Shown one piece after another: positions 2,691 to 37,967 of a stretch of DNA of 64,000 bases. Origin of the DNA: Escherichia coli (GTDB taxonomy: Bacteria; Pseudomonadota; Gammaproteobacteria; Enterobacterales; Enterobacteriaceae); NCBI RefSeq assembly GCF_044324785.1, contig NZ_CP172127.1; one strand, given 5' to 3'. The notes below the pieces were generated by a model. The model searched no databases. It saw only the letters and a list, made by a program, of their open reading frames with translations, and was not told the DNA's origin. Both the position numbers and the translations under genes were made by a program. Each line of letters opens with the position of its first letter. Positions within the stretch are counted from its first letter, which is position 1.

Positions 2691-2763
2691 AACATTTAAG
2701 CTGATGACCACCGCGCTTTTTATTGACCATTTTGCACGCAAACTGGAAAACCTGGCGTCGTCA

Positions 2764-2774
2764 TCTATTCTTAA
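2764..2774 (+). promoter_or_regulatory. Sigma-S type extended -10 element for sdsR
   Basis: TCTATTCTTAA matches the RpoS extended -10 consensus (TCTATACTTAA) at 10 of 11 positions, placed to start transcription at about 2778. Confidence 0.5.
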
Positions 2775-2777
2775 AGG

Positions 2778-2881
2778 GCAAGGCAACTAAGCCTGCATTA
2801 ATGCCAACTTTTAGCGCACGGCTCTCTCCCAAGAGCCATTTCCCTGGACCGAATACAGGAATCGTGTTCGGTCTCTTTTTA
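2778..2881 (+). ncRNA. sdsR: sRNA SdsR (RyeB), RpoS-dependent
   Basis: Sequence GCAAGGCAACTAAGCCTGCATTAATGCCAACTTTTAGCGCACGGCTCTCTCCCAAGAGCCATTTCCCTGGACCGAATACAGGAATCGTGTTCGGTCTCTTTTT recognised as SdsR; ends in hairpin CCGAA..TTCGG plus T-run; about 104 nt. Confidence 0.7.
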
Positions 2882-3014
2882 TCTGTTAAAAGCCAGAAGC
2901 ATTCCCTTCGCTGACTTTATAGTCAACCATAACACACACTCTACTGTCTGAGTCCAGCGTTTTTTAACATTCTTGTTAAGATTATGTGATCTTTAGCGCG
3001 GGAGGAAAATATTG

Positions 3015-5761: not shown

Positions 5762-5840
5762 GAGCATGTACCACTGGCAAAAAAACAGGCGCGCAGTTTA
5801 GCATAAACGCTCCGGCGCAGGCACGCCGGAGCAGTGAGCA

Positions 5841-8474
5841 TTATTTGGGAAGCGCTGTTCCCCATTCACGCCACTCTTTCGGTTCACTTTCCTGCAACAG
5901 GAAGTGCTTGCCTTCCTGAGCTTTCGGTGCCAGCGGCGTACCCGGAGGCGTAGCGAAGGCGATGCCGCCACGGATAAACTGGTTAAAGGTGCCGGTTTTT
6001 ACTACGCCGCCCGTCAGACCAAAGTCCAGACTGTAACCCGATGCCAACCAGAAGACGGAATTGTTACGCACCAGGTGTTGATAGCGTTTACTGATGCGCA
6101 TCGCAATCATCACGCGATCTGACAATGTCCCCAGCGTCATTCCGGTAACCGTACCGACTTCCAGACCACGGAACAGCACAGGTGTACCGATACCTAACGA
6201 ACCGGCTTCCGGCGCTTCAACAATAATGCTTAAGCCATCCAGGTAACGCGAATCAGTTATGGTGGCCTCTTGTAATTCAAAGTCGCGGCGAGGATTGCCC
6301 CGGCCTGGTTCGACGTTGATATACGGCTGGAGGATAGTATCAAGATGCTCAACGCCAGCTGCCGAAATTTGCGGTGTGACCACTGAGAAGCGCGTACCAC
6401 CGCGAGCAAAGGTCTGGACATATTCCGGATAGAGCACCGCCTTTGCCTGTACTTCATTGCGCGCGGTAATCAGATCCAGCGTCTGGATTTGCCCGATATC
6501 AATACCGAGATAGCGAATTGGCATCCCGACCGCCAGTTTTCCGGCATCGAAAGCGTGAAGCGTAATCTGCCCGCCAACCGCACGGGCTGCTGTTTCGGAA
6601 GCATACAGAATACGCTTATCGCCTTTACGCTGACTGGCGCTGGCACCGCTGAGGTTATCGAAGCTAATGGCTCCCTTTAATGCTCTGGAGAGCGGGGATG
6701 CCTGTACGGTCAGGCCACTACCATTCAGCTGAACTTTCGCCCCGCCTTCTGCCCAGAACACGCTATTGCTGGTCAGAAGGTTGCGATACTCCGGCTTAAT
6801 ATGCAGATCGATATCAAACGCGTTAGCTCGCGGACGCACAGTAATAACTTCACCAACTTCAAATTTACGGTACAGCACTACCGATCCTGCCTGCACATCC
6901 GGCAGTGTCTCTGCACTCAAACTTACGGTTGTGGTGGGTAAATCGCTAAGGCTGTTCTCCAGCGCTTTTTCCAGATTGGCATACAGTGGATAGCTGGCTT
7001 TCATCTCGCCTTTATCGCCCGGCAGAATACGTATCCCGCCGTTAATCCATTCTGAGGCGCTGGCACCGAGAAACTCAACGCCATCCAGCCCCACCTTCAC
7101 GTCGACACGGCTGTTGACGACAAATTTGCTATCGCCTTTTACCAGTTCGCGATGCTGAGGCTCGATGGCGACGGTAAAGGTGACGCCTTTGCTGGTGAGT
7201 TTACGATCAATAACCTGGCCTACCTGCACGCCGTGAAGAATGAGCGGCTGACCAGCATCAATGCCGTAACTTTCTGGTGCTGTCAGGGTCAGTGTCAGAA
7301 CATCCGGCTCTTGTAGCAGGGCTTTTTCACCTGGCACAACAACGAACTCTTTGCGTGGCTCGCCATCGCCGGGCACCAACTCAAAGGTTTTTCCGGTCAG
7401 CAGGGCGCTGAGATTGGCATCGCTAAGGGATAATTTCGGATTACGTAATTCGATGCGGGTATTTTCACGAAGCAGGGTGACGACGCTGGGATCAACGGTC
7501 ATTTCTCCGGTGACTTTACCACCAGGATTTAAATCCAGTTTAGTCAGCTGTCCGACTTCCAGCCCCTGATACATTAACGGCGTCGAGTCGGCGGTTAATC
7601 CGGCCCCACTCGGCAGTTCCAGTTTTATTATTACGCCACGCTGGCTGTGGGCGAGATCTTCATACAGACCAAAGGTATCTTCCGCCTCGGCAGGTTTCGA
7701 CTCTTCAGGTGAATCGAAGGCAATCGCACCGTTAACCAGTGCCGCCAGACTTTCCAGTTTCACCTTCGCGCCACTGATACTGACGTTGGCATCAACGCCG
7801 GAAACGTTCCAGAAACGGCTACCTTTTTTCACCAGGTCGGTAAAACGCCGCTCGATCAGGACATCAATCACCACACCTTGCTTGTTGGGATTGATGGCAT
7901 AGTCGTAGACTTTTCCGACCGGGATCTTGCGGAAATAGACCAATGAACCGCTGTTCAGCGAACCGAGATCGGGGGCTTGCAGGTGGATCATCAAATCGCC
8001 ATTGTCCAGCCGATATTTCGGTTGGGTATCGAGTGCGACAAAGTGATCCTGCTCTTTACCTTTACCTGGCATCATGCCGATATAGTTACCACCGACGAGG
8101 GCGTCCAGCCCGGAGACACCTGCCAGCGAGGCCTTTGGCGTCACCAGCCAGAACTGTGTCTCTTCGCGCAGCGCATCTTTCATATCGGACTTGATGCTGA
8201 CCTTGACTTCAATCTTACGAAGATCGTCGCTCAGGCTGATATCCTGCACAGTTCCGACTTCAACGCCCTGATAACGAACAGGCGTACGGCCTGGAACAAT
8301 ACCATCCGCCGACATAAAGTCGATGGTGACGGTATTGCCCCGGTCCTGATAACTGTCCCAAATCAGCCAACCAGCAATCATTAGCGCGATGAACGGCAGC
8401 AGCCAGAAAGGTGAGATACGGCGTTTGTTTTTAATCTGCGCTTCAGTCGTCGAAGCGGGCGTTTCCTGACTCAT
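5841..8474 (-). CDS. letB: Lipophilic envelope-spanning tunnel protein LetB (YebT), multi-MCE domain
   Basis: Track ORF 5841..8516 (891 aa) trimmed to Met15 (MSQETPAST...) gives 877 aa; repeated MCE-like segments; overlaps letA by 32 nt. Confidence 0.9.
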
Positions 8475-9726
8475 GTGCATCCCAAAGTAAGCGGCTGTCC
8501 AGCCATTCCACAGCAAGAATAGTCAAAATTACCGCTGCGCCGAAATAAAACGCAGCCGGTCCCATAGTAAAAGCGAGGATCTGATCGCGATTAATCAGCG
8601 ACATGGTTAAAGATATGACAAACAGGTCGAGCATCGACCAGCGACCAATCCAGGTCACCATCCGCAGTAACAGAATGCGTGTGCGTAAACCTTGCTGGCA
8701 TTTAAAATGAATACTCAACAGTAAAGTGAACATGACGATCACTTTAGTAAACGGTACCAGAATACTGGCGATAAACACGATTCCCGCAACGGCAATGTTG
8801 CTACTTGCCAGCGACATAATTCCGGAAAGAATTGTATCTTCCTGCCGTCCTCCGTTCAGATAAATGATAGAAATAGGCAACAGGTTGGCAGGTAACAACA
8901 AAACGATTGACGCTAACAGCGCCGCCCAGCATTTTTGCAGACTATGACGGCGACGCAGGCGTAGCGGGATATGGCAACGCGGGCAGCGACCACGCTGATC
9001 AGGATAGCCGGTAAAATGGCACCCAAGACAGACACGGAGTTTCTCGTCCCTACGCGTAGCGGGGCGCTGCGGATAAAATCGCTCCCACAGTTCTTCGACA
9101 TTGAGATGTGACAACGTCACCGTCGTTAAAATCACCAACGCCACAAAAGAGAACAAGCCGACACCCGCCTGGATATGGGCATAATCCTGCACCTTTATAG
9201 AAGCAACGCCAATGCCGACCAGGTAGATATCGAGCATTACCCACTCTTTCAGTCGTTCAAGCATCAGCAGTACCGGACGTAAATTCATTCCCAGTCGGTT
9301 ACCAAACCATAAATAAGCTATGGAGGTCACCAGAATGAGGGGGGCACCGATAACGCAGAAAAAGACCATCGACCCCGTTATCGCATCGCCCTGTTTGGTC
9401 ATTTGCCAGATGCCTTGCATAACGTTGGCGTCAATACGAATGCCTAACAGCCAGATATGCAACAGCGGTTCGCCCCAGGCAAACGGCATAAGCAACAGCA
9501 TGGTGAAGGCCATTGCCGCCAGGCGCGTTAGCGACCAGTCGCGCCCGTCACGAATTTTTGCCTGACAGCGCGGACAATAGGCACTTTGATGAGAATTTAT
9601 CTCGGGCAGGCTAAACAGCATGTCACATTGCGGGCAACGTTGGTAATCACCACGCGGCAGTTCCTCACCGATAGCCCTCACTGTTATCTTTTTTGTCGGC
9701 GTAATTTGTGGTGTGTTAAGAGCCAT
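8443..9726 (-). CDS. letA: Inner membrane protein LetA (YebS), PqiA family
   Basis: 427-aa ORF with two CxxC...CxxC zinc-ribbon-like motifs each followed by hydrophobic segments; immediately upstream of and overlapping letB. Confidence 0.9.
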
Positions 9727-9855
9727 GACGTGCCAAATGTAATAAGAATTAACATTAATCTTAACCCATGATGGGAATGATCTTGAGCATTAACGCATTT
9801 AATGCTTATTTTAATAGGCTGGCAGTTCCTGGTAAGACAACCAAGTGATTATATA

Positions 9856-18923: not shown

Positions 18924-19733
18924 ATGTCGTTTTCCTGTCCACTTTGCCATCAGCCTCTTTCGCGTGAAAAAAACAGCTATATCTGTCCCCAGCGACATCA
19001 GTTTGATATGGCGAAAGAAGGGTATGTCAATCTGCTGCCCGTTCAGCATAAACGGTCTCGTGATCCGGGCGACAGCGCGGAAATGATGCAAGCACGCCGC
19101 GCATTCTTAGATGCCGGACATTATCAGCCGCTGCGTGATGCAATTGTCGCTCAACTGCGGGAACGGCTTGATGAAAAGGCCACAGCGGTGCTGGATATTG
19201 GCTGTGGTGAAGGGTATTACACACACGCATTTGCCGATGCGCTGCCCGAAATCACCACGTTTGGCCTGGATGTCTCGAAGGTAGCGATAAAAGCGGCGGC
19301 GAAACGCTATCCGCAGGTCACTTTTTGTGTTGCTTCCAGCCACCGTTTGCCGTTTTCCGATACCAGTATGGACGCCATAATACGTATTTACGCGCCGTGT
19401 AAAGCAGAAGAATTAGCGCGAGTAGTGAAGCCTGGCGGTTGGGTCATTACTGCCACGCCGGGACCGCGACATTTGATGGAGCTGAAGGGGCTGATTTACA
19501 ATGAAGTACATCTTCATGCACCACATGCAGAACAACTGGAAGGTTTTACATTACAGCAGAGTGGTGAGTTGTGTTATCCGATGCGTCTTCGCGGTGACGA
19601 AGCCGTCGCATTATTGCAGATGACGCCGTTTGCCTGGCGTGCGAAGTCAGAAGTCTGGCAAACACTGGCAGCAAAAGAAGTGTTCGACTGCCAGACGGAC
19701 TTTAATATTCACCTCTGGCAGCGTTCTTATTAA
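18924..19733 (+). CDS. rlmA: 23S rRNA m1G745 methyltransferase RlmA
   Basis: 269-aa ORF with N-terminal Cys4 zinc motif (CPLCHQ...CPQRH) and SAM-binding DIGCGEG motif. Confidence 0.9.
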
Positions 19734-24398: not shown

Positions 24399-25955
24399 AT
24401 GGAATTCTTAATGGACCCCTCAATTTGGGCGGGGCTACTCACGCTTGTTGTTCTCGAAATTGTGCTGGGTATCGATAACCTGGTCTTCATCGCCATTCTT
24501 GCTGACAAACTGCCGCCAAAACAACGCGATAAAGCGCGTTTGCTGGGATTATCACTGGCGCTGATTATGCGTCTGGGGCTGCTGTCGCTGATTTCATGGA
24601 TGGTCACGCTGACCAAACCGCTATTTACCGTCATGGATTTCTCCTTCTCCGGACGTGACCTGATTATGTTGTTCGGGGGAATATTCTTGCTGTTCAAAGC
24701 AACAACCGAACTGCATGAACGGCTGGAAAACCGCGATCATGATTCCGGTCACGGTAAAGGCTACGCCAGTTTCTGGGTGGTCGTCACACAGATCGTCATC
24801 CTTGACGCCGTCTTCTCGTTGGATGCGGTAATTACGGCAGTAGGGATGGTTAACCATCTGCCAGTGATGATGGCGGCGGTAGTGATTGCGATGGCGGTTA
24901 TGCTGCTGGCATCGAAACCGCTGACGCGATTTGTTAACCAGCATCCAACGGTGGTGGTGCTCTGTCTGAGCTTCCTGTTAATGATTGGTCTGAGTCTGGT
25001 GGCAGAAGGTTTCGGTTTCCACATTCCGAAAGGTTACCTGTATGCCGCGATTGGCTTCTCGATCATCATCGAAGTGTTTAACCAGATTGCGCGTCGCAAC
25101 TTTATTCGTCACCAGTCGACTTTGCCGCTGCGAGCGCGTACTGCCGATGCCATCCTGCGTTTGATGGGCGGGAAACGTCAGGCCAATGTTCAGCACGATG
25201 CCGATAACCCGATGCCGATGCCGATCCCGGAAGGTGCATTTGCCGAAGAAGAACGTTACATGATTAACGGCGTACTCACGCTGGCGTCGCGTTCTCTGCG
25301 CGGGATCATGACGCCGCGCGGTGAAATAAGCTGGGTTGACGCTAATCTCGGGGTCGATGAAATCCGCGAGCAGCTGCTCTCCTCACCGCACAGCCTGTTC
25401 CCGGTATGTCGCGGTGAACTGGATGAAATCATCGGAATCGTACGTGCTAAAGAACTGCTGGTGGCGCTGGAAGAGGGCGTTGATGTGGCGGCGATTGCTT
25501 CGGCGTCTCCGGCGATTATCGTCCCTGAAACCCTCGATCCGATCAACCTGCTGGGCGTGCTGCGTCGTGCTCGCGGGAGCTTTGTTATCGTGACCAACGA
25601 GTTTGGTGTGGTACAAGGCTTGGTCACGCCGCTGGATGTGCTGGAAGCCATTGCGGGTGAATTCCCGGACGCTGACGAAACGCCGGAAATCATTACTGAT
25701 GGTGACGGCTGGCTGGTAAAAGGCGGTACAGATTTGCATGCCTTGCAGCAGGCGCTTGATGTTGAGCACCTTGCCGATGACGATGATATCGCGACGGTCG
25801 CGGGCCTCGTGATCTCGGCAAATGGTCACATTCCCCGTGTGGGCGATGTGATTGATGTAGGTCCACTGCATATCACCATCATTGAAGCCAATGATTATCG
25901 TGTTGATCTGGTTCGCATTGTTAAAGAGCAACCGGCGCACGATGAAGATGAGTAA
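24399..25955 (+). CDS. yoaE: TerC-family membrane protein with CBS/CorC C-terminal domains, YoaE
   Basis: 518-aa ORF: N-terminal polytopic TerC-like half, C-terminal soluble CBS-pair and transporter-associated region. Confidence 0.9.
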
Positions 25956-36236: not shown

Positions 36237-37922
36237 TTGAAGAAGGTTTGGCTTAACCGTTATCCCGCGGACGTTCCGACGGAGATCAACCCTGACCGTT
36301 ATCAATCTCTGGTAGATATGTTTGAGCAGTCGGTCGCGCGCTACGCCGATCAACCCGCGTTTGTGAATATGGGGGAGGTGATGACCTTCCGCAAACTGGA
36401 AGAACGCAGTCGCGCGTTTGCCGCTTATTTGCAACAAGGGTTGGGACTGAAGAAAGGCGATCGCGTTGCGTTGATGATGCCTAATTTATTGCAATATCCG
36501 GTGGCGCTGTTTGGCATTTTGCGTGCCGGGATGATTGTCGTAAACGTTAACCCGTTGTATACCCCGCGTGAACTTGAGCATCAGCTTAACGATAGCGGCG
36601 CATCGGCGATTGTTATCGTGTCTAACTTTGCCCACACTCTGGAAAAAGTGGTTGATAAAACCGCCGTTCAGCACGTAATTCTGACCCGTATGGGCGATCA
36701 GCTATCTACGGCAAAAGGCACGGTAGTCAATTTCGTTGTTAAATACATCAAGCGTCTGGTGCCGAAATACCATCTGCCAGATGCCATTTCATTTCGTAGC
36801 GCCCTGCACAACGGCTACCGGATGCAGTACGTCAAACCCGAACTGGTGCCGGAAGATTTAGCTTTCCTGCAATACACCGGCGGTACCACTGGTGTGGCGA
36901 AAGGCGCGATGCTGACTCACCGCAATATGCTGGCGAACCTGGAACAGGTTAACGCGACCTATGGTCCGCTGTTGCATCCGGGCAAAGAGCTGGTGGTGAC
37001 GGCGCTGCCGCTGTATCACATTTTTGCACTGACCATTAACTGCCTGCTGTTTATCGAACTGGGTGGGCAGAACCTGCTTATCACTAATCCGCGCGATATT
37101 CCAGGGTTGGTAAAAGAGTTAGCGAAATATCCGTTTACCGCTATCACTGGCGTTAACACCTTGTTCAATGCGTTGCTGAACAATAAAGAGTTCCAGCAGC
37201 TGGATTTCTCCAGTCTGCATCTTTCCGCAGGCGGAGGGATGCCTGTTCAGCAAGTGGTGGCAGAACGTTGGGTGAAACTGACTGGACAGTATCTGCTGGA
37301 AGGTTATGGCCTGACCGAGTGTGCGCCGCTGGTCAGCGTTAACCCGTATGATATTGATTATCATAGTGGTAGCATCGGTTTGCCGGTGCCATCGACGGAA
37401 GCCAAACTGGTGGATGACGACGACAACGAAGTACCACCGGGTCAACCGGGTGAGCTTTGTGTCAAAGGACCGCAGGTGATGCTGGGTTACTGGCAGCGTC
37501 CGGATGCTACCGATGAAATCATCAAAAATGGCTGGTTACACACCGGCGACATCGCGGTGATGGATGAAGAAGGATTCCTGCGCATTGTCGATCGTAAAAA
37601 AGACATGATTCTGGTTTCCGGTTTTAACGTCTATCCCAACGAGATTGAAGATGTCGTCATGCAGCATCCTGGCGTACAGGAAGTCGCGGCTGTTGGCGTA
37701 CCTTCCGGCTCCAGTGGTGAAGCGGTGAAAATCTTCGTAGTGAAAAAAGATCCATCGCTTACCGAAGAGTCACTGGTGACTTTTTGCCGCCGTCAGCTCA
37801 CGGGCTACAAAGTACCGAAGCTGGTGGAGTTTCGTGATGAGTTACCGAAATCTAACGTCGGAAAAATTTTGCGACGAGAATTACGTGACGAAGCGCGCGG
37901 CAAAGTGGACAATAAAGCCTGA
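36237..37922 (+). CDS. fadD: Long-chain fatty acid-CoA ligase FadD (TTG start)
   Basis: Track ORF 36171..37922 trimmed to TTG-initiated (M)[25 protein letters not shown]... (561 aa); AMP-binding motif [11 protein letters not shown] present. Confidence 0.9.
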
Positions 37923-37940
37923 GCGTTAAGTCAGTCGTCA

Positions 37941-37967
37941 GACGCCGGTTAATCCGGCGTTTTTTTT
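37941..37967 (+). terminator. Intrinsic terminator after fadD
   Basis: acgccgg-ttaat-ccggcgt hairpin followed by TTTTTTT. Confidence 0.85.

Follow-up and report, generated by a model that had tools for sequence, protein, structure and literature searches.

A putative letB initiation site built into the end of letA in the letAB lipid-transport operon of Escherichia coli

Introduction

How does a downstream gene obtain its ribosomes when its start codon lies inside the preceding gene and in another reading frame? We addressed this question at the junction of letA and letB, within a 64,000-nt window (the whole stretch of DNA analysed) whose identity to complete RefSeq E. coli genomes is at most 99.0%. 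The locus is the letAB (yebST) lipid-transport operon of this strain. Published work, with structures, already covers the overlap of the two genes, the LetA zinc ribbons and the LetB tunnel. What is added here is small, namely a fixed letB start, a variable overlap, and a minimum of synonymous variation just 5' of the ATG.

The letAB operon and its products

The genes, the parts of their products and the candidate transcription signals are the following.

9726..8443, minus strand: letA (yebS), 427 aa, an ORF with the same coordinates as RefSeq yebS; encodes the inner-membrane lipid-loading subunit LetA with two LetA/PqiA modules (ORF, PDB and Pfam)
8445..8443, minus strand: letA stop codon TGA (sequence)
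9565..9636, minus strand: LetA N-terminal zinc-ribbon cysteines, C31xxC34...C51xxC54 (translation)
8974..9030, minus strand: LetA C-terminal zinc-ribbon cysteines, C233xxC236...C248xxC251 (translation)
8474..5841, minus strand: letB (yebT), 877 aa, same coordinates as RefSeq yebT; encodes LetB, a membrane-anchored tunnel protein with seven MCE domains (PDB and Pfam)
8342..6051, minus strand: LetB MlaD/MCE domains (PF02470), residues 45-137, 163-220, 280-353, 394-455, 514-589, 636-724 and 747-808
9808..9835, minus strand: weak candidate sigma-70-like promoter 5' of letA, TTACCA-16-TAAAAT (consensus scan only, 9/12 matches)
5808..5833, minus strand: intrinsic-terminator-like hairpin with an 11-bp stem and 8 G-C pairs, 8 nt past the letB stop

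LetA is 100% identical across its 427 aa to chain A of PDB 9n8w, and chain B aligns with LetB over its full length, residues 1-877. Compared with E. coli K-12 LetAB (PDB 9n8w/9n8x; PMC13017536), the locus agrees at 427/427 LetA residues and over an 877-residue LetB alignment, as well as in gene order, 32-bp overlap, two zinc ribbons and seven MCE domains, and differs only by strain-level nucleotide changes. PF04403 matched LetA at residues 66-217 (E 1.3e-38) and 263-418 (E 8.4e-43), giving two tandem modules. An earlier reading of the bare sequence (the original prediction) had described paired CxxC...CxxC motifs before hydrophobic blocks; all four CxxC motifs were located, each set standing ahead of one PqiA domain, and the spacings (n = 16 in the first set, n = 11 in the second) fit the family pattern CxxC-Xn-CxxC (n = 11-18). 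The conservation of these pairs in homologues, which it had proposed as a check, was high: in an alignment of 51 family members (28-49% identity), C31, C34, C51 and C54 did not vary, and C233, C236, C248 and C251 were at least 90% conserved. The C-terminal-module motif GRWSM-psi-D-psi-F is present as GRWSMLDLF (residues 361-369), with G361, W363, S364 and D367 invariant in the family alignment. The cysteine pairs form two essential, mutation-intolerant Zn-binding ZnR domains, and ICP-MS found ~2 Zn for each LetA (Santarossa et al., Nature 2026, PMC13017536).

LetB begins with a single hydrophobic membrane anchor (residues 20-39), followed by seven PF02470 MlaD matches, all with E <= 1.5e-4, in agreement with the repeated MCE-like segments first seen in its translation. 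LetA, a zinc-ribbon inner-membrane protein, loads phospholipid into LetB, whose hexamer forms a tunnel across the periplasm from seven MCE rings. The original prediction had called both cargo and direction of transport poorly defined. This no longer holds for the cargo, since phospholipid is accepted, and it stands for the direction: an export model exists, but its authors state that directionality is not yet established.

The two genes probably share one transcript, since promoter-like matches within letA were not above chance and a strong terminator hairpin follows letB. In the consensus scan, the number of promoter-like matches in the region equalled chance expectation. An internal letB promoter was considered and rejected, with one weak match only (8891..8864) and a match count at chance expectation.

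Geometry of the overlap

8443..8474, minus strand: letA/letB overlap, 32 nt, out-of-frame (sequence and RefSeq annotation)

The overlap codes for LetA residues 418-427 and LetB residues 1-11 in different frames (32 mod 3 = 2). RefSeq/PGAP annotation of E. coli genomes shows this geometry too, and an "overlap by 32 bp" has already been stated for letA/letB (Santarossa et al., Nature 2026, PMC13017536). The coordinates first proposed, a letB start at 8474 lying 32 nt within the 3' end of letA (stop at 8443-8445), are thus right; RefSeq places yebT at 8474..5841 rather than 3' of the letA stop, and retains the overlap. In the solved structure, LetA 419-427 lacks density, and LetB 1-13 is missing from the model, having been dropped for low predicted confidence (PMC13017536).

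The rarity of long overlaps, with <30 bp shared in >80% of overlapping gene pairs, speaks for an annotation artefact in which the true LetB start would lie 3' of the letA stop. We give this reading practically no weight. Between 8474 and codon 32 the letB frame contains no ATG, GTG or TTG, and its next ATG is codon 32 itself, within the transmembrane helix; ATG 8474 is present in every orthologue examined; and the Bhabha/Ekiert group takes the overlap as genuine (PMC13017536). The letB frame is already open 5' of the ATG at 8474..8472. Since the only in-frame starts before the membrane anchor are TTG 8516, ATG 8480 and ATG 8474, no alternative choice of start abolishes the overlap. Both upstream candidates were rejected: variable sites in the stretch 5' of 8474 hit second positions of the letB frame, and this stretch therefore does not behave as letB-coding. 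ATG 8480 is moreover missing in 19/82 loci and abuts GGG with zero spacer.

The letB initiation site and its conservation

8472..8484, minus strand: letB initiation core, TGG (Trp415)-GAT (Asp416) giving GGGA, 5-nt spacer TGCAC, ATG (sequence, duplex energy)
8483..8480, minus strand: GGGA Shine-Dalgarno, weak (duplex with the 16S rRNA 3' end, -4.0 kcal/mol)

None of the 82 Enterobacteriaceae loci lacks the letB ATG, and 8 Enterobacterales orthologues from further afield have it too. Four of the 82 loci have lost the letA stop, which lengthens LetA by 4 residues and moves the ATG from -32 to -44. Across nine diverse Enterobacterales loci, the ATG falls exactly 10 nt past the first base of the near-invariant Trp415 codon in every case (9/9), and the conservation of W415 itself in the LetA/PqiA family is at least 90% (51-member alignment). 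Overlap lengths among nine Enterobacterales lineages were 11, 20, 26, 32, 38 and 56 nt, the differences arising because the LetA tail differs in length. Judged from these alignments, what is conserved is where letB starts, and not how long the overlap is. The contig scan supplied close Enterobacteriaceae orthologues only (77-97% identity); deeper ones came from 12 single-protein look-ups, and the distant sample is small: 13 loci, of which one has no MCE gene downstream in the same orientation. An arrangement with letA immediately 5' of a multi-MCE gene was also found in Yersinia, Erwinia, Serratia, Providencia and Brenneria, and the pair overlaps or tightly abuts in nearly all orthologues examined.

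Two neighbouring features were also inspected. An A/U-rich enhancer 5' of the Shine-Dalgarno was rejected, the A/U content at -25..-11 being ordinary for the operon (36th percentile). The leucine codons TTA 413 and CTT 414 are unusual and invariant in Enterobacteriaceae, and are not retained in Brenneria.

Synonymous-site constraint around the junction

8439..8526, minus strand: block of extreme synonymous conservation, letA codons 401-427 and letB codons 1-12 (79 Enterobacteriaceae loci)

Within this block, mean synonymous codon entropy was 0.10-0.23, against an operon mean of 1.2 (79 Enterobacteriaceae loci), and the ten lowest 12-codon entropy windows all lay inside it. The constraint extends beyond dual-coding sequence: the 17 letA codons 401-417, wholly 5' of the overlap, gave 0.31, whereas none of 1,233 other windows fell below 0.81. 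The synonymous conservation 5' of the ATG shows that the nucleotides themselves serve a function of some kind.

One conceivable function is that the ~90-nt block (8526..8439) is a dedicated RNA-level element within the invariant LetA C-terminal motif RLLWD, which would set 1:6 LetA:LetB synthesis or receive post-transcriptional regulation. This would account for the finding that, in Enterobacteriaceae, non-dual-coding synonymous sites 5' of the letB AUG are the most conserved of the operon, and it would make both the LetA tail and the 32-nt overlap secondary consequences of the element. We regard it as improbable.

RNA folding at the junction

We next consider whether mRNA structure masks the letB Shine-Dalgarno and AUG, with ribosomes on the letA 3' end melting it and thereby giving new 30S subunits access. 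In a 400-nt partition-function fold, GGGA was mostly paired (unpaired probability 0.05-0.22), as was the GGGAUGC segment (0.05-0.28), in line with such masking. The strong synonymous constraint reaching ~50 nt 5' of the ATG points the same way and, as argued for MS2, a spacing of -32 would let a terminating ribosome keep the RNA open while leaving the site free. Against this, the 136-nt junction folded no better than shuffled controls (z = -1.5), RNAalifold on 19 orthologues gave -4.95 kcal/mol with virtually zero covariation and with the Shine-Dalgarno and AUG columns unpaired, and the small upstream hairpin GGCU-GGAC-AGCC is lost in the most distant orthologues. Coupling through RNA unfolding thus seems to us a doubtful explanation.

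The letB AUG itself was predicted to be largely unpaired. The weak Shine-Dalgarno and a GGGA mostly paired in the model run counter to independent initiation, and would favour dependence on letA translation. Two structural candidates were discarded. For a conserved hairpin that would mask this site, the single-sequence fold was not significant and the alignment fold lacked covariation, and a small GGCUGGACAGCC hairpin (8505..8492) showed changes in its loop only and was gone in distant orthologues.

Translation of letB

Translational coupling between letA and letB is plausible on the sequence. In its strict form, a ribosome would end letA at the UGA (8445..8443), back up ~30 nt and restart at the AUG at 8474, such that letB would need letA translation. 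The weak Shine-Dalgarno (-4.0 kcal/mol) is compatible with this, as are the near-universal overlap or abutment of the pair, the position of the junction as the operon's most constrained nucleotide stretch, and a phage fr/MS2 precedent at -38/-50 nt. However, the solved complex contains six LetB for each LetA (Santarossa et al., Nature 2026, PMC13017536), a ratio calling for more letB than letA initiations, and it is the start position that is conserved, not the overlap length (11-56 nt). Reinitiation in native E. coli pairs drops steeply with distance and collapses within ~20-40 nt, and -32 nt falls outside the predictive stop-start range of -8..+10 (Huber et al. 2023). Finally, refactored, non-overlapping ORFs served as the template of the LetA deep mutational scan (PMC13017536), although how letB obtains a ribosome-binding site in that construct was not apparent. 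Given the 1:6 complex, the variable spacing around -32, the failure of the folds to show a conserved inhibitory hairpin and the overlap-free version used in the scan, strict 1:1 reinitiation appears unlikely. Within the library searched, no paper linked yebS or yebT with translational coupling, or yebT with ribosome profiling.

We consider it somewhat probable that letB is instead translated mainly through independent initiation, at a start site built into the end of letA. The letB ribosome-binding site would sit in the last structured letA codons: the Trp415-Asp416 codons (UGG-GAU) would provide the weak GGGA Shine-Dalgarno, and the His418/Glu419 codons would supply the AUG 5 nt further on. 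The letA frame then continues through a short, disordered tail of variable length, giving rise to the overlap. Fresh 30S initiation, at a weak but accessible site, would be the main route to letB, with passing letA ribosomes giving partial help at most. The evidence counted for this reading comprises the fixed start beside a variable overlap, the weak Shine-Dalgarno, the synonymous constraint over and 5' of the start, the AUG predicted to be largely unpaired, the alignment fold without a conserved cover, the promoter-like matches no more frequent than chance within letA, the terminator past letB, the overlap-free template of the mutational scan and the 1:6 complex, with the steep fall of reinitiation over distance as background. 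Independent initiation would permit ~6 LetB per LetA, whereas obligatory 1:1 termination-reinitiation would not, with the 1:6 synthesis ratio being read from the stoichiometry of the complex.

Comparison with related systems

The paralogous MCE system PqiA-PqiB-PqiC of E. coli likewise has a two-module PqiA-family protein encoded directly 5' of a multi-MCE gene, and PqiA shares the Cys motifs of LetA and a C-terminal FDPRLxWD motif. In contrast to letAB, pqiA and pqiB do not overlap but are separated by a 4-nt gap, and pqiB has a strong Shine-Dalgarno, GAGGAG (-8.9 kcal/mol), inside the pqiA tail. PqiB also differs in length (546 aa), and the system has a third gene, pqiC, whose overlap with pqiB is 4 nt.

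The coat-lysis junction of phages MS2 and fr resembles letAB in that the downstream start lies -38 to -50 nt inside the upstream ORF, in another frame. There, coupling was shown experimentally, whereas in letAB it would be a prediction from sequence; for letAB, no conserved masking structure was found among 19 orthologues, and the needed product ratio of ~6:1 favours the downstream gene. Coupling at those phage distances, a point counter to independent initiation, indicates that a ribosome could conceivably scan back across 30 nt.

Implications for letA alleles

Both the ribosome-binding site and the start of letB are found 32-43 nt inside letA, and a highly conserved stretch extends ~50 nt beyond them in the 5' direction. 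A letA deletion or C-terminal tag that removes or disturbs 8443..8526 can therefore change how much LetB is made, and the effect can pass for a LetA phenotype. Deletions of the Keio design reportedly leave ~21 nt of the 3' end, and such letA alleles would be affected. More generally, the fixed start beside a variable tail would make this junction a tidy example of a long overlap arising passively.

The locus encodes the LetAB transporter

The gene order around the locus, yobB-holE-...-rsmF-letB-letA followed by msrC-proQ-prc-htpX..., is that of the E. coli chromosome. Its two genes and their junction are as follows.

Features of the letA-letB locus
9726..8443, minus strand: letA (yebS), open reading frame of 427 aa
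8474..5841, minus strand: letB (yebT), second frame, 877 aa from the ATG at 8474
8443..8474, minus strand: letA/letB overlap, 32 nt, out of frame

The original prediction placed the overlap at these coordinates and was right in every detail, as both the open reading frames and the RefSeq annotation agree, the yebS/yebT geometry in the latter being identical to that in the window. LetA matches chain A of PDB 9n8w/9n8x ("Intermembrane transport protein YebS") at 100% identity, and LetB can be aligned over its full length to chain B as well as to previously solved LetB structures (among them 6v0c). The LetA protein is also the same sequence as K-12 LetA; when window positions 1-25000 were compared with 5,426 complete RefSeq E. 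coli genomes, the top identity was 99.0% (strain N3), with the rest below 99%.

Pfam assigns LetA two PqiA domains, one at residues 66-217 and the other at 263-418; LetB receives seven MlaD/MCE domains, bearing out its description as repeated MCE-like segments. The paired CxxC motifs proposed for LetA are present as C31xxC34...C51xxC54 and C233xxC236...C248xxC251. In a 51-member LetA-family alignment (28-49% identity, E. coli PqiA among the members), the first four cysteines are invariant and the second four at least 90% conserved.

Much of this has been described by Santarossa et al. (Nature 2026, PMC13017536), whose cryo-EM structure of LetAB contains one LetA per six LetB. Their paper also gives the letA/letB overlap as 32 bp. 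Both cysteine clusters form zinc ribbons, with about two Zn bound, and cysteine mutations are not tolerated; the proposed model is one of export, in which LetA loads the LetB tunnel with phospholipid, although the authors regard directionality as still to be established (PMC13017536). The locus is LetAB itself, and all that the finding describes was known before, translational coupling being its one putative element. In the literature searched, no paper linked yebS/yebT to "translational coupling" or yebT to ribosome profiling. Our analysis adds a fixed distance between a Trp codon and the letB ATG, a variable overlap length and an exceptional degree of synonymous constraint 5' of that ATG, which refine the LetAB picture and do not change it.

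The letB start codon lies inside letA

Only three letB-frame start codons precede the membrane anchor (TTG 8516, ATG 8480 and ATG 8474). After these, the frame has no ATG until codon 32, within the anchor. We compared 82 Enterobacteriaceae loci, comprising the window, locus L001 and 80 genome-scan loci with LetA 77-97% identical. ATG 8474 is kept in all 82, and ATG 8480 is missing in 19. Upstream of 8474, the variable sites are letA third positions and hence letB-frame second positions, so this stretch does not behave as letB-coding. A letB start downstream of the letA stop, which would have spoken against the overlap, is excluded by the available in-frame starts and the universal conservation of ATG 8474 in these loci.

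The letB ATG stands at -32 relative to the letA end in 78/82 loci and at -44 in four (L013, L027 and L031 from Citrobacter spp., L062 from Superficieibacter). In these four, the letA TGA is now GGA, LetA gains 4 residues to reach 431 aa and the overlap is 44 nt, with the letB ATG the same; they are a direct example of overlap length changing easily.

This arrangement matters for deletion alleles. The Keio design reportedly keeps about 21 nt at the 3' end of a deleted gene. The letB Shine-Dalgarno (SD) sequence and ATG are located 32-43 nt inside letA, and a letA deletion keeping only the final ~21 nt would lose both. The published letA deletion strain is Keio collection-derived and was complemented with letAB, not letA alone; LetA's own role was separately secured by point mutants in a refactored plasmid (PMC13017536).

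Start position, rather than overlap length, is conserved

Deeper orthologues, found through exact-protein look-ups, have proQ-prc and/or rsmF as neighbours in all loci long enough to show flanks. Across nine Enterobacterales lineages, with LetA identity down to 37%, the Trp codon of a LetA C-terminal motif, R-L-(L/I/M)-W-(D/K), precedes the letB ATG by exactly 10 nt, counted from the first base of that codon. The overlap itself measures 32 nt in the window, Yersinia, Erwinia and Serratia, 26 nt in Providencia, 20 nt in Brenneria, and 56, 38 and 11 nt in three other lineages; homologues further off (34-39% identity) have an overlap of 8 nt or a gap of 25 nt. In the LetA family as a whole, conservation of W415 is at least 90%, and residue 418 marks the end of the second PqiA domain, the end of the resolved LetA structure and the exact site of the letB ATG. 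Density is missing for LetA residues 419-427, and LetB residues 1-13 are not in the model, were omitted from simulations because of low predicted confidence (PMC13017536). Because the Trp-to-ATG distance is fixed, the overlap length variable and folded LetA ends there, the selected feature is the position of the letB start relative to the end of LetA's folded part, and overlap length just tracks the length of the disordered LetA tail.

Two variations were seen among the LetB orthologues. In Providencia huaxiensis (L094 4202-6541; overlap 26 nt), LetB has 779 aa and six MlaD/MCE domains, not seven, and its tunnel would be one ring shorter. Early in-frame stops reduce letB to 726, 539 and 88 aa at L008, L017 and L061 (Citrobacter amalonaticus AUH_CA_2023_1, C. 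koseri NCTC10786 and Kluyvera ascorbata ATCC 33433), which could be pseudogenes or assembly errors.

Synonymous constraint extends upstream of the letB start

To calculate synonymous codon entropy in 12- and 17-codon windows, we aligned letA and letB by codon across 79 Enterobacteriaceae; since the sequences share ancestry, the comparison is descriptive, not a formal test. Mean entropy is about 1.2 in each gene. The ten lowest 12-codon windows all fall within letA codons 407-427 (0.10-0.23), followed by letB codons 1-12. The entropy of letA codons 401-417 is 0.31, versus a minimum of 0.81 among 1,233 other 17-codon windows. As these codons lie entirely 5' of the letB ATG and are not dual-coding, an RNA- or DNA-level feature beyond dual coding is conserved over the ~50 nt that precede the letB start, with the letB translation-initiation region as the obvious candidate.

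The codons for Trp408-Leu-Asp-Ser-Arg412 also form a small hairpin, GGCU-GGAC-AGCC (8492-8505, minus strand), located 18-31 nt ahead of the letB ATG. Seven lineages keep it, with the Ser codon always AGC and changes only in the loop or as G-U wobble, and the two most distant orthologues do not have it; the evidence is insufficient to propose a function.

Translation of letB

A single transcript for both genes is suggested by a promoter-like match ahead of letA (9835..9808), by promoter-like sites within letA that are no more frequent than chance predicts, and by a strong terminator hairpin (5833..5808). The letB SD is weak: GGGA, from codons TGG-GAT, forms a duplex of -4.0 kcal/mol with the 3' end of 16S rRNA and is separated from the AUG by a 5-nt spacer. 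In contrast to this SD and 32-nt overlap, the E. coli genes pqiA and pqiB lie 4 nt apart, with a strong SD (-8.9 kcal/mol). Upstream of letA (9727-9760, minus strand) there is essentially no SD, the best duplex reaching -1.5 kcal/mol, which fits a low LetA output relative to LetB.

Strict termination-reinitiation, in which letB would depend on ribosomes finishing letA, seems unlikely. In a LetA1:LetB6 complex, letB must initiate several times more than letA if synthesis is roughly proportional; reinitiation efficiency drops steeply with distance in native E. coli pairs, with a predictive range of -8..+10 nt (Huber et al. 2023); the overlap length is not conserved; and the deep mutational scan, a functional assay, used letA/letB refactored to two non-overlapping ORFs (PMC13017536). 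Somewhat less likely still is coupling by RNA unfolding at the letB site, for which the evidence is mixed. The GGGA bases are paired in a single-sequence partition function, but the junction folds no better than shuffled sequence (z = -1.5), and when 19 orthologues are folded as an alignment, the SD/AUG stays unpaired and covariation is lacking. We consider it reasonably probable that letB initiates mainly independently, from a weak but accessible site within the letA sequence, and that ribosomes translating letA assist only in part, if at all. Since coupling over -38/-50 nt is documented for phages fr and MS2, such partial coupling may operate here. The original interpretation is partly supported: the gene identities, overlap, Cys pairs and MCE repeats stand, and coupling would probably be partial at most.

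Other features of the window

Rfam and homologous RefSeq annotation located further elements.

Additional RNA elements and gene overlaps
2740-2884, minus strand: SraC/RyeA, 175 bits, antisense sRNA pair with SdsR/RyeB; known E. coli locus between yebY and pphA
2781-2880, plus strand: SdsR/RyeB, 114 bits
18373-18833, plus strand: Rfam cspA-type thermoregulator, 140 bits, across the yobF-csp pair; known element
~19730-19733: rlmA/mntP, convergent, 4-nt overlap (homologous RefSeq annotation)
~24399-24411, plus strand: small ORF yoaL/yoaE, 13-nt same-strand overlap (homologous RefSeq annotation)
37881-37966, plus strand: sroD sRNA, 115 bits
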